DNA from: Eledone cirrhosa
Taxonomy: Eukaryota
Direction: 5' to 3'
Assembly: GCA_964016885.1 (NCBI GenBank)
Contig: OZ024743.1
Location: forward strand, 266,228,001 to 266,292,000
Length of the DNA stretch: 64,000 bases
Shown: positions 1-46,366 of the stretch, in pieces
How positions within the stretch are numbered: the stretch's first letter is position 1
Layout: each line of letters starts with the position of its first letter
Position numbers and translations under genes: made by a program
The notes under the pieces: model-generated
Told to the model about the DNA's origin: nothing
What the model saw: the letters and a program-made list of their open reading frames with translations, nothing else
Database searches by the model: none

Positions 1-899
1 TTTAATATAGATGAGATTCTACAGGACTAGAACTGTTTCATTCTTTAGAAATCATCAGGAATCTGGGTATCAAAAAATAAATATGGTATTTATAGGTCTC
101 TACAAGTGGTAGGAGAGGGTGGGGAGTGGATGGGTGTAGGTCATTGGTTGATAGAAAAGGAATTCATTAAAAGCTAATTCTACAAAGCTATAGTTTATTT
201 TTATTAATTGTTGTTTTTAGTAACAAAGGCAGACATAATTCTATAAACAGGTTCCGGATGGCATACCATTCCTTGTCATTAAGTTTCTCTTAAGCTAACA
301 GATGTCTATAAGATCAGTGGGGGGGGGGGGGGGTCAGTCATGGTAGATAGAATTAAAGGAAAGGGAGATTCTTTAAAAGCTAAATTCATTCAGGTTCTAC
401 TACAGAATTCTCTAAACCTTTGTCACTTAGTAGAACCTTAATGAATTTAGCTTTTAAAGAATCTCCCTTTCCTTTAATTCTATCTACCATGACTGGACCC
501 CCCCCCCCCCCACTGATCTTATAGACATCTGTTAGCTTAAGAGAAACTTAATGACAAGGAATGGTATGCCATCCGGAACCTGTTTATAGAATTCTGTCTG
601 CCTTTGTTACTAAAAACAAAAATTAATAAAAATAAACTATAGCTTTGTAGAATTAGCTTTTAATGAATTCCTTTTCTATCAACCAATGACCTACACCCAT
701 CCCACTCCCCACCCTCTCCTACCACTTGTAGAGACCTATAAATACCATATTTATTTGTTGATACCCAGATTCCTGATGATTTCTAAAGAATGAAACAGTT
801 CTAGTCCTGTAGAATCTCATCTATATTAAAACTTATACTCTGCAATGTATTGAGTACCTTACTTACTGTGGTTACCTCCGATTCAACCCGGAATAACGT
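1..899 (+). mobile_element. Fold-back non-autonomous Penelope-like element, family P1: inverted arms ~1-402 / ~428-830 plus tail 831-899
   Basis: 1-50 is the exact reverse complement of 781-830. Arms are near-identical (G-run/C-run) around a ~25-nt spacer. Each arm has an HHR. The tail runs into (TA)n/(TG)n. Same family at 42495 and 45511. Confidence 0.85.
767..817 (+). ncRNA. Minimal type I hammerhead ribozyme (mirror copy at 14-64, minus strand)
   Basis: agattc-CTGATGA-stem II (ttct/agaa)-GAAA-cag(ttctagtc)ctg-TA-gaatct. Core intact, stems I-III pair, GUA cleavage triplet. Confidence 0.85.
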
Positions 900-3800
900 A
901 TATATATATATATATATATATATGTGTGTGTGTGTGTGTGTGTGTGTGGTGTCTTAATATAAGTCAATTAATATCTAGAATGTATCATACAATTTAAGGC
1001 GAGTATCTGACTGGTATTATATCGTAAGAAACCAGAAGCAAAGACGATTGTGCTATTCACCACCTAATTAAGCCGATCGTATTCATTGCGGTATGATAAA
1101 AACATCCCATCCGTGACTAACCCTCTGTTTACTTGGGTCATGCATCCAGAACAATACCCCTATGCTTTGAGTACTCTTTATAGTAGCTCGAGCGACCACA
1201 AAAATAATTTTTCCTCGGCGCGAATCTTGCATATGAAAATTGCATTTTTAAGAAACATAGTTGAATATAATTTCTGTAGCTAGAACACTTTATTCTTTAA
1301 TGGTTCCTAAAATGCCAAGGGCTTGTCCCTTCTCCGTGATGTGGGAGATATAAATACGAAGAAAGTTAGCTTCGTTAATCTGTGCTGAAATGCAATAAAT
1401 TTATTTGTGCCTTGCTAATAAATACTGAGGGAGATTGTTTTTCTCTCTGTTTATCATTTAGATGAGCTCATTGTAACCATTGCTAAACTGTTTCTCGCAA
1501 AGACAATCACGATGTAAATATATTGAATGAGACATACTGACTGGTTCAAGATTTCGAACCAACAAATACTGATTTCGAACACAAACGCGTTATCAACTTC
1601 TAGATAAGAAAATTAAATAATATTCCAAAAGGTTTTTTTCAGATAATAGAGAAATCGTTTCGTATTTGTCATACTCGGATGGGAGGAGGGACAATGCCCA
1701 TAGATTTTGTAAAGGACTTCTTTGTGTACAAGACAAACTTTCTCATTATTAGTCAATGTTCTCGCTGTTGCTTTTAAATTCCGTTTTGAATTGTTGCAGC
1801 TTTGTGGTTGTTATAAAAGCTTCAATTGGTTTAGATGCAGAGAGATTCACAGAATACTAAAATTTGGTAAATAGAAATGTGTGAGGAAATTGTTGTCTAT
1901 GGGATTTGGTTAATTTGTTTGTGGTACATATTAATATCAGCGTTATGTATTTGGTAGTTACTCACCGGCCATAGGCTTATTGCATATAGGTGAGGATAAA
2001 TCAGGTTTAGCCTTTTCAGAGAAGACTCTTAAGATAATGTTATTGTTGTTGTTGCTGCTGCCGCTGTTGTATTTTTATGTTGGAGGGGTGCCTTAACCCA
2101 GTGTAACCCTGGTGGAAGCGTCCTGTCTTTCTTCATAAGCCTGCATAATCGAATGGTTGCCTTCTTTTAAGCGACTGCGTAGATGCTGTGTACTTTGTCC
2201 TGCGGAAATTTCTTAGCAAGTTATATTGTGTTACTAGAAGAAATAAAGATACGAAATACCGTCAAGTGGATCTAAAGTGTATAGGATACTAAGAATTTAG
2301 TGTATAACTACAGAGTAGATAAATATATTGTGTATAAATATATTGTGTATAACTACAGAGTAGATACATGTACCATACATATGTTGCGGTTTAAAGTTTG
2401 AAAGTGTAGACTATCTTCTGCTTTGCTGCATATCATAGATTTTTGTGTGTGTGTTTTAAAAGTAGGGTTCCCCAATCTCATTATAATTTCGCCTCCCGGT
2501 GAAGGCTGGCGAGATTTGATCTATGAATGCGTGGAGCTGGAACAGATATAAATTATTTCGTCCAATATTTTGATAATTCAGCCGATCCACTAACCCTACA
2601 CTGGTATAATATTGATTGTGATATTCTGTCGGCTTCGCCAATTTGTGAAGTGTCATGAAGTTTGTAAAATACAGACCACCTGAATACATGTGGCGTAAAG
2701 ACAGTTCGAGAAGTAGATGCCATATGATTTGAAGCATGGTTCAGATCTGAAAGAATCAATGTTTCTGAATAAGAAATTCGGTGTTTGTAGTGATGCTTAA
2801 ATATTCACAGATTAAAGATATTCACAGCGAAACAGTTGTATGTTTATTATACATAAACATAGCTTATATGTTTTATATACACCACTATTATAAAGATACT
2901 ATGTCAGCGCTACTGCTAATCTATCCTAGCACACCAGGTTCACACTATATGCAAATGAGCTTCTACAACCGATGCATCATTGAGAAAAGAGCATATGTGA
3001 TTTAGCTTATTCTTGTCTCTGTAATAGGTGAGAAGATGTTACCGGTAACGGATACAAATTCGGAAAAACGTGTCTGATACATACTTCGGGTACTGAGATA
3101 GGTGAGACATGATCACAGCTTAATATATCCTTAGTAGGACTATTGTCTCCACCACACACACACACACACACACGCACACATACATACATACATACACACA
3201 TACTCACACACACACACACACATATATATATATATATATATATATATATATATATTATGTCTCACACACATCGATTTTGTCGTCCAATTCCTGAGGTGAA
3301 GTGGCAAAATTGAAAATATGATTAAACTATCTTACAATAACTTTGCGGTCATGTATCTATGCTAAAAATAATTATTATTGCTATAAAGTGCATTGGCTAG
3401 TAGTAGAGTGTTTAGTAAAGGTCATGTTGTATTCAAAACACCTTGTGTGATCAGCATTGACTTTCATCCTTCTATTGTTCATAAAATATAAACCTGCCTC
3501 GATATGCATAGTTCGGTATTCATATTCCGGATTTTCATTCCACATTTGGTCTTCCTGTGCATAATAAAATAAGTAACGTATAGGATACTGAGGTGAAATC
3601 GATTCACAGGCAACGCTTTTCATACACAAAAGAATGTTTACGGTTCCGTTAGGCAGGAAGGTAGTGTACACGGTACCCATTTCTCCTTCAGGTTCTCCGA
3701 GATAGGCCGGAGAATTGGTGGGAATTGTCATCAAATTGGGGACACCTCTAAAGTTGTTAAAAGACCAGGTGTTGGCTTTAGATTTTGCAGCGTTTGGGGC

Positions 3801-4639
3801 TAATTCCAACGAATTCTAATGCAAAATGACGGAAAATACCTCTGGGTGTTGTGTTGGACACTCTGCCAGTTCTGACAATCCAATGCCCATTGTGTCGAAC
3901 TTGTAGACATAAACGGTTGGATTTAAACTCAAAGAGCACATATCCGATAAAACATAAATATTCTGGCTATTAGCAAACCTCATATGAGAAAGCATTATTA
4001 AAATTGCAAAAGAATTCAGTCAATGACCTAACCATTGAACTGCGATGAAAGTGTCTTGCACTTATTGCGCAGAAGTACATTTAACAGTTTTTGTATGAAA
4101 TAACAGTCGGTAACACTTTCACAATGTAACTGTTTCTTTTTCAACACATTATCTCAGATCAAACCATTTGCCAAAGTAACATTTATTGATAATATTCTCT
4201 GTATCTTTTCTGAAAAAAATATTGTTGAGCTGTTAAAAGGTAGTAACAAATTATCATTCAGAATAACTACTAAACATTTAATAAAAACTATTAAAAATCT
4301 ATATTGTTGATAAAGGGCATGGAGCTAATTTTTCACAGGTGTGTACAAATAAATGAATTTCATAACATATTAGTATATTGGTTTCTTTAGATACTTATAA
4401 CTTCCCAAGTCACCAAAACATTAGTTGGTAGTGTTAAGATGTAATTTAATTTGAATGTTTTCAGTCTATTAAAAAGCTCCGCCTATCATCACAATTCTAT
4501 ATAAATCACTATGCATGTAATTATGTTGTGTAAGTAAAAAAATGTTCTGAAGTGTGTTTATGGTTTACACCCTGCGTTGTGTACATGTGTGTACCATACA
4601 TACTTAAATTCAGTACTCATCCACAAGGAAATGTAGGCC

Positions 4640-4950
4640 TATATATATATATATATAATTGTACAGGCACTACATAGGGGGAGAAGAGATAGAGAAACAC
4701 ACACACACACACACATATATATATACATATATATATATATATATATATATATATATATATATATATATATATATATATATATATATATATATGTATATAT
4801 ATATATATGTATATATATGTATATATATATATATATATATGTATATATATGTATATATATACATATATATATATATATATATATATATATATATATATAT
4901 ATATATATATATATATATATATATATGTATATATATATGTATATATATAT
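4640..4950. repeat. (CA)n/(TA)n microsatellite; comparable long tracts at 5278-5431, 6204-6270, 7274-7425, 8627-8915, 10400-10524, 12078-12154, 32645-32850, 45341-45490, 45756-45852, 47875-48019
   Basis: Dinucleotide runs seen directly. They produce the YIYI/HTHT/CVCV pseudo-ORFs. Confidence 0.98.
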
Positions 4951-5055
4951 GATAAACGGAAAAAATGAAAGGAAATTTCTTTTCTCACTCTTAGCACGGC
5001 TGTTACTTAAATATAAATATGTATATATAAGTATGTAAATATAAGTATGTAAATA

Positions 5056-45620: not shown

Positions 45621-45634
45621 TATACTTATATTAA

Positions 45635-45758
45635 TATATAGGAAAAAGTATGACCCCGACGGCAGAGCTAAAGCCGTTTCGACGGTAATTTCTGGACAGT
45701 ATTGAGTACTCTGGTGCGTTATGGTCCATTTGGTTCCTTACCACAATTTCTTTGTTAT
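45635..45758 (+). mobile_element. Collapsed fold-back PLE, family P6: inverted HHR 3' half joined directly to the tail
   Basis: 45640-45697 is the reverse complement of 13992-14050. The tail is the reverse complement of 12470-12535. Confidence 0.65.
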
Positions 45759-45857
45759 ATATATATATATATATATATATATATATATATATATATATAT
45801 ATATATATATATATATATATATATATATATATATATATATATATATATATATAAATA

Positions 45858-46366
45858 ATGTAGGAGGTGAGTTTTATTGTAGTACAATAAAGCAATGCAG
45901 ATATCGGATAAGTAGCACTCTACAGTTTGTAGGACTGGAGTATAAATAATATATAAGATCAAAAGATGGTTAAAAGAGTTCCATGTATTTTATTATGCGC
46001 ATTTCAAAAACAAATATCATCATCCGATGACAATTGCGTTTTCGTCAGATAAAATAGGGAGACATGATATGAAGGTTAAAAAACACTTGTGAATAGTGCA
46101 GTTTTAAATCAACATATGAAAAGTAGTTTTAGATTGATGTGTGATATTGGGAAAAAAATGTTTCCCAATATCACACATCAATCTGAAACTACTTTTCATA
46201 TGTTGATTAAAAACTGCACTATTCACAAGTGTTTTTTAACCTTCATATCATGTCCCCTTATTTTATCTGACGAAAACGCAAATGTCATCGCATGATTATA
46301 TTTGTTTTTGAAATGCGCATAATAAAATACATGGAACTCTTTTAACCATCTTTTGATCTTATATAT
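45858..46366 (-). mobile_element. Fold-back PLE, family P2: tail 45858-45949, palindrome ~45950-46366
   Basis: Homologous to 5433-5868 but turns ~35 nt further in. HHR ttttat-CTGACGA-..-GAAA-tgcgca-TA-ataaaa at 46261-46327. Confidence 0.85.

Follow-up and report, generated by a model that had tools for sequence, protein, structure and literature searches.

The window analysed here is a stretch of 64,000 nucleotides (nt) from Eledone cirrhosa (contig OZ024743.1, positions 266,228,001 to 266,292,000), in which a preliminary description had listed twelve insertions of Penelope-like elements and proposed that all share one layout. We read the window by self-BLAST with microsatellites masked, by inspection of the sequence and by mapping to family references. 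The listed insertions sort into eight families, A to H, and at all twelve coordinates the proposed layout held: each insertion has one tailed and one tail-less end. We call the tail-less end E1 and the tailed end E2; both point outward into microsatellite, mostly (TA)n. Among two-armed copies the pairing of E1 with E2 is a near-strict and real rule, partly anticipated in vitro, and a conserved hairpin motif that adjoins these ends in the main lineage is new.

The long family C copy (37822-42467, plus strand) consists of an inverted tail stub (37822-37881), a tailed pseudo-long terminal repeat (pLTR) running to 38944, a broken open reading frame (ORF) for reverse transcriptase (RT) and a GIY-YIG domain from 38990, and a tail-less second pLTR. 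With the stub on its left and the tail-less pLTR on its right it obeys the same rule, as had been claimed for it. Its internal pLTR carries a hammerhead-like core at 38745-38786 (CTGATGA...GAAA, plus strand, by pattern only). Hairpin 1 lies immediately downstream of E1 (38852-38873, plus strand), and hairpin 2 immediately downstream of E2, 22 nt ahead of the ATG (38948-38967, plus strand). A metagenome element (L378, 711-960) has the same layout of inverted tail stub, pLTR with both hairpins and ORF.

The two family A copies lie at 5434-5868 (tailed arm 5434-5692, minus strand; tail-less arm, plus; turn at a CATATG hot spot; hairpin 5490-5516, minus) and at 45859-46366 (tailed arm 45859-46160, minus; tail-less arm, plus; hairpin 45915-45941, minus). 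The family B copy at 1-899 has a minus-strand tail-less arm that extends about 6 nt beyond the left edge of the window, a plus-strand tailed arm (416-899), a tail at about 831-899 and a hairpin at 837-857. A tail-less minus arm followed by a tailed plus arm is likewise found in a family B relative (42495-42690, hairpin 42626-42646), a family C relative (23103-24152, hairpin 24069-24090), the family E copy (5886-6205, junction overlap 8 nt, hairpin 6120-6167), the family F copy (6787-7274) and the Neptune-like family D copy (31068-32642), whose tailed arm carries the GIY-YIG end of the ORF. Family H is present at 13870-14050, as an inverted tail stub (+58 to +82) and a plus-strand tail-less arm, and at 45635-45758, as a tail-less arm (45638-45697, minus) and a tail stub (45698-45758, plus); in these two copies and in the long C copy the tailed arm is a stub inside the tail. 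The Neptune-like family G copy (10526-12082; tailed arm minus, tail-less arm plus) has its tail-less arm split by the 3' piece of an RTE-like long interspersed nuclear element (LINE) at 10884-11859 on the plus strand, a later insertion with the direct repeat ATAAGGTACAA at both sides, which stands outside the end rule. The 5' end of this insert (10887-11030) likely stems from local capture: over 144 nt it repeats, in inverted orientation (98.6%), the stretch 9793-9936 some 1 kb distant.

Two further copies were absent from the earlier list. One belongs to another family, J (33245-34806; tailed arm minus, tail-less arm plus), which is abundant and gave nine more E1+E2 pairs in the retrieved loci. 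The other is a B-like two-armed copy (45485-45630) with one tail-less arm and one that stops 20 nt into the tail, a partial exception. A short insertion at 8431-8630, of a family outside those sampled, joins an inverted tail-like stretch to a tail-less arm. The stretches 48446-53382 and 54073-64000 hold a LINE whose endonuclease and RT frames lie on the minus strand, along with several further pieces of LINEs that end in (AAT)n.

The families had been described as unrelated, which does not stand: the eight reduce to three lineages. Judged by their sequences, families A, B, C, E and H appear to be relatives of the Hydra clade, as is probably a sixth, and D and G look Neptune-like. Together with the later-found families M and N, families A, B, C, E and H show 38-51% amino-acid identity with B and group together as one clade (Shimodaira-Hasegawa-like approximate likelihood ratio test, 98) in a quick tree among unnamed homologues that included no named Hydra sequence. 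D and G are distant from these Hydra-type families (about 20-27% identity or less) and sit on long branches in the quick tree, which lacked reference clades; they carry a CX2-5CxxC linker between RT and GIY-YIG, and their clade assignment is by motifs only. In A, B, C, D, E, G and H the arms run contiguously into a single ORF with RT and, at its C terminus, a GIY-YIG domain. Family F, which is older, carries the tail motif; an ORF contiguous with it was sought and none was established. Pfam matched RVT_1 and GIY-YIG in G and, weakly, RVT_1 in D. It gave no RT or GIY-YIG match in the Hydra-type proteins, which were assigned through YRDD and Y-x-G-x-T motifs, and a PDB sequence search did not recognise the Hydra-type RT.

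In structure the elements resemble endonuclease-positive Penelope-like elements, with a pLTR, partial tandems, an inverted 5'-truncated copy and a tail all present. DKT replaces DKG in B, C and E and was not seen in the fragments used for A, H, M and N; the CxCX5C linker is present in A, B, C and M, and CxxC and CxH around a conserved E and N in A, B, H and M. The N-terminal RWK site is only partly conserved, RW being kept and followed by R or I (RIRWRA, RLRWRA, RLRWIA). Hammerhead-like cores lie 57-247 nt upstream of E1, with the canonical pattern CTGAnGA...GAAA in A, B, C, D, F, G and M and an altered one in E, H and N (pattern only); an Rfam scan of 1-47000 returned no hammerhead or other meaningful family, all matches being under the gathering score. 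TA is the most frequent flank at both ends in every family. Another Hydra-type family, with a 5'-truncated and broken ORF, lies at 34855-37160 and falls in the same clade as A, B, C, E and H. In two family D loci (L337, L339) the ORF has, in its N-terminal part, a long run rich in asparagine, a feature likewise described for rotifer elements (PMC3846280).

To map the ends across the 3.0-Gb source assembly, we queried it with one tail-free stretch per family and kept the best 30 of 49 to 1584 candidates per family, a ranking that favours young subfamilies; long copies were extended. Subtracting 8 window copies and 15 second matches to one insertion from the 240 matches left 217 insertions, called automatically and corrected by hand. 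The automatic calls placed 114 matches at E1, 118 at E2 (including four internal read-through copies and one mis-call later corrected) and 8 elsewhere. E1+E2 two-armed copies account for 115 of the 217 insertions (A 18, B 11, C 14, D 14, E 16, F 6, G 20, H 16), a few of them with a slightly short tail, versus two like-ended pairs (115/117 mixed; binomial p 8e-32 if ends were independent at 0.5, when half should be like-ended). A hand count of an unselected 200 kb beside the window gave the same picture: 20 of 21 head-to-head pairs were E1+E2, one was E1 with a partial tail and none was like-ended. D and G follow the rule without the Hydra-type hairpin. Tails run from 39 to about 164 nt by family reference mapping; the tail at one boundary is thus as first described, and its length range is not the 35-100 nt then given. 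Three insertions are uncertain, and three G loci taken for exceptions (L266, L267, L277) proved on sequence reading to be E1+E2 copies whose alignments over-run into repeats.

Could the palindromes be chimeras of assembly or amplification? One locus, L150, speaks for it, being a tail-to-tail secondary inversion that takes in flanking DNA. Against this, the arms of a copy differ by 1-7%, the ends are family-specific and asymmetric, the later LINE sits in one arm only of the 10526-12082 copy, and the same ends recur in independent metagenome assemblies. These arguments from sequence leave the artefact next to no probability.

When target-site duplications beyond the TA runs were sought, 7 of 103 copies had a match of at least 10 nt, versus 36 of 1023 random pairs. 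The only non-repetitive duplication among the 103 copies is a 29-nt direct repeat at L104, which lies outside both TA runs, so that in this single case the runs would have arisen at or after insertion. No clean example emerged when empty target sites were sought. In family G, 7 of 17 copies carry (TC)n or (TATC)n beyond E2, and in family N several E1 ends have (TC)n after them; initiation stutter or later slippage are possible sources.

We then considered what marks the two ends. A bulged hairpin motif, RCTC-[inner stem]-T(T/C/A)-GAGY-RC, recurs next to them in the Hydra-type families. With the sequence after E2 taken from read-through copies, each of the two ends in families A, C and E is followed by the hairpin within about 3-12 nt. 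In M and N the motif was seen twice upstream of the ORF before their ends were mapped; the ends then fell 4-9 nt upstream of each hairpin copy, except that one end in N lies 16 nt away. The resulting tails measure about 104 nt in M and about 162 nt in N. Scanning metagenome contigs with an alignment of 118 homologues gave 78 loci, of which 44 were used (match near the N terminus, upstream DNA present). Exactly two motifs were found in 23 of these 44 Hydra-type loci, one in 12 and none in 9, and none of 1320 shuffles had two; the motifs are spaced 44-83 nt apart. Eleven loci have a 3' repeat that ends inside the contig; in 8 of them this end falls 0-8 nt ahead of a hairpin, and seven of the 8 run into TA or ATTT runs. 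Inner pairs 1-3 are paired in 55/57, 40/54 and 29/34 instances and include several kinds of base pair, counts that none of 2000 shuffles reached, relatedness being uncorrected; pairing at the fourth inner pair in the metagenome instances was not beyond shuffles. Support for the hairpin, as a predicted structure, comes from conservation and covariation, not from folding energy. In L054, a G read-through copy, GTGTATAT occurs about 31-33 nt past both E1 and E2 and is possibly a Neptune-type twin motif.

We infer that the ends are starts of reverse transcription. The hairpin could instead be a recognition site in DNA or complementary DNA (cDNA) for the GIY-YIG domain, with E1 and E2 as cut sites. 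The ends do stand at a near-fixed distance from the motif, and PMC11167929 cites earlier work in which the tail is required for endonuclease recognition. However, copies that end at E2 lack hairpin 2, so that a cut would need a longer precursor; the covarying inner pairs indicate a single-stranded fold, and the ends fall on TA-like microhomology. We regard cut sites as very improbable.

The arms themselves carry information on how they were made. Turn points extend from within the tail to about 4 kb upstream and are broadly spread in B, D and E. They cluster within at most 10 nt in three families, where similarity ranking of the matches may inflate the clusters: in A, 17 of 36 arm starts lie at -170 to -173, at the CATATG palindrome; for G the figure is 34 of 40, at -188 to -197, and for C 10 of 28, at -186 to -194. 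A freely varying turn point, as previously asserted, is therefore not what is seen in these three. The clusters lie 44-87 nt upstream of the hammerhead-like core and would be RNA 5' ends where both cDNAs run off. In 48 copies it is the tail-less arm that extends further 5', in 24 the tailed arm, and in 43 the two agree within 20 nt (21 values hand-set). For 14 insertions of the genome-wide set the whole tailed arm lies within the tail, as a stub that has no sequence in common with the other arm.

These observations bear on the interpretation given in PMC3846280 and PMC8557442, in which a palindrome lets a single cDNA (or antisense RNA) fold back and act as its own primer, and a staggered endonuclease cut leaves the one-sided tail. 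Near-perfect palindromes and CATATG junctions are frequent, and variants common to both arms would fit. A stub that has no sequence in common with the other arm cannot have come from a fold-back hairpin, though, and this class already contradicts the scheme. Fold-back from the tail also requires the tailed arm to be the longer, whereas either arm can be (tail-less 48, tailed 24); a tail-primed cDNA that folds back cannot yield a longer tail-less arm. In vitro, moreover, RT starts coincide with tail ends (PMC11167929). Self-priming of this kind seems improbable.

Among 80 insertions with overlapping arms, 99 of 187 non-consensus variants are common to an arm and its own partner, versus about 33 when the partner of another insertion is used. 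This points to one template for both arms. An alternative with two templates is dual priming, with two RNAs, one per RT and target strand, and with the two RTs constrained to E1 and E2, respectively; it has been raised as a possibility for the LINE-1 (L1) element (PMC2837659). It would yield overlapping arms without strand displacement, and RNAs of one source would also have variants in common. It leaves the near-absence of like ends and the 14 in-tail stubs unexplained, and own-partner arms have variants in common three times as often as arms of other insertions. We consider it unlikely.

Junctions could be measured in 113 of the 117 paired copies, and the arms abut or overlap in 65. The overlap is at least 2 nt in 45 of these 65 versus 256 of 911 simulated junctions, and at least 4 nt in 18 of 65 versus 56 of 911, five of the 18 being the same family A hot spot. 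An excess of reverse-complement overlap is the trace expected from annealing of two cDNA 3' ends. Fillers in L080, L153, L255 and L260 are short repeated copies of an arm end.

Taken together, the data make it probable that the arms end at two fixed sites because two reverse transcriptases, one per cut (TA)n strand, begin copying a single RNA at different internal TA-rich sites. Several observations weigh against this reading or narrow it. Two pairs are like-ended, L293 (E2+E2) and L262 (E1+E1, a symmetric composite); 17 of the 217 insertions have a partner whose outer end is not clear, and for 79 no inverted partner was found, 21 of them in the oldest family, F, so that the end rule applies to two-armed copies only. 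Common variants could also arise if one arm later converted the other or if two RNAs came from one source, and C and D carry almost no variants. A gap or filler takes the place of an overlap at 48 of the 113 junctions. As for the hairpin, B has it after E1 only, and the stem that follows its E2 is a different one; in H and F it follows E1, and no read-through copy shows their post-E2 sequence; D, G and J have no match to the motif. A looser pattern gives a third match in M with no end adjoining, and 3 of the 11 metagenome repeat ends are not at a hairpin. The covariation counts ignore kinship, the first inner pair partly follows hairpin number, and folding energy of the hairpin windows is not below that of shuffles in the Hydra families, except at the B E2.

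Under two-site priming on one RNA, one hairpin copy in the Hydra clade would place each reverse transcription, which would start 0-12 nt upstream of it; with each start set by its own hairpin, the tail would be the spacing between the two hairpins. Reverse transcription from E2 would trail that from E1 and would either halt in the tail, leaving a stub, or displace the first cDNA, giving overlapping arms. Displacement requires that the RNA survive, and these RTs are not known to have RNase H. The two cDNA 3' ends would then anneal by short reverse-complement homology or join via short filler, and each joined cDNA would template the second strand of the other; failure at one side would give a single-armed copy. 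Of the mechanism first proposed, two fixed ends, priming from both sides and head-to-head joining are retained, and the free turn point is not. Such priming may even be the normal route of endonuclease-bearing Penelope-like elements, with a dimeric RT loaded by two hairpins and with tail, inverted arm and second strand made in one reaction; we give this broader proposal a little less than an even chance, and its dimerisation step is borrowed from the published model of an anole element. If it is correct, moving the hairpins should move the start sites.

The pairing rule, the evidence for one RNA and the end-locating motif make the mechanism accessible to direct tests by mutation, for which an assay format exists. 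For curators, the motif marks exact boundaries of Hydra-clade consensus sequences, and it accounts for a large class of short AT-flanked palindromes that may be taken for miniature inverted-repeat transposable elements or assembly faults. We found no statement of strict E1/E2 pairing, a single template or a twin hairpin in the literature searched, which did not extend to subscription papers. The formation of inverted repeats and a one-sided tail in Penelope-like elements is termed undefined in PMC8557442, and PMC11167929 leaves the steps after initiation unvalidated for the anole element.

That element, the Poseidon-type PAc of Anolis carolinensis, is the closest in vitro counterpart to our proposal. 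Both strands are cut and extended, and reverse transcription starts at two internal sites that bound the tail; the enzyme prefers AT-rich DNA, needs RNA downstream of the starts and is predicted to be a dimer (PMC11167929). Both-strand extension from two starts is therefore not new here. No difference in PAc start sites was seen between the strands (PMC11167929), which fits either strand using either site. PAc differs in belonging to another clade, with a tail of 30-40 nt and starts inside the ORF, whereas the starts here lie upstream of the ATG; the main text of PMC11167929 reports no pairing of one start per side and names no repeated hairpin. The Hydra clade (PMC8557442) resembles our families in its single ORF with RT and C-terminal GIY-YIG, DKT, CxCX5C linker, terminal CxxC and CxH, (TA)n target and hammerhead-like pLTR, the last by pattern only here. 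In the consulted parts of that account we found no twin bulged hairpin, no tails of 69-164 nt and no strict pairing of E1 with E2. D and G share with Neptune-type elements the CX2-5CxxC linker, C-terminal GIY-YIG and short tails of 39-56 nt, and differ from the Hydra families in keeping the end rule without the Hydra hairpin. Finally, twin or dual priming of L1 likewise has two RTs, primed by the two target strands, make a head-to-head insertion, there starting at a poly(A) tail and an internal site and producing an inversion with deletion between target-site duplications (PMC2837659). The marks of that process are missing among our copies, which have no poly(A), mostly overlapping arms and one clear 29-nt duplication in 103. 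In these elements, unlike L1, each of the two starts has a fixed place, 39-164 nt from the other, and overlapping arms are the usual case. L1 twin priming would be a mechanistic analogue of what we propose and not the same process.

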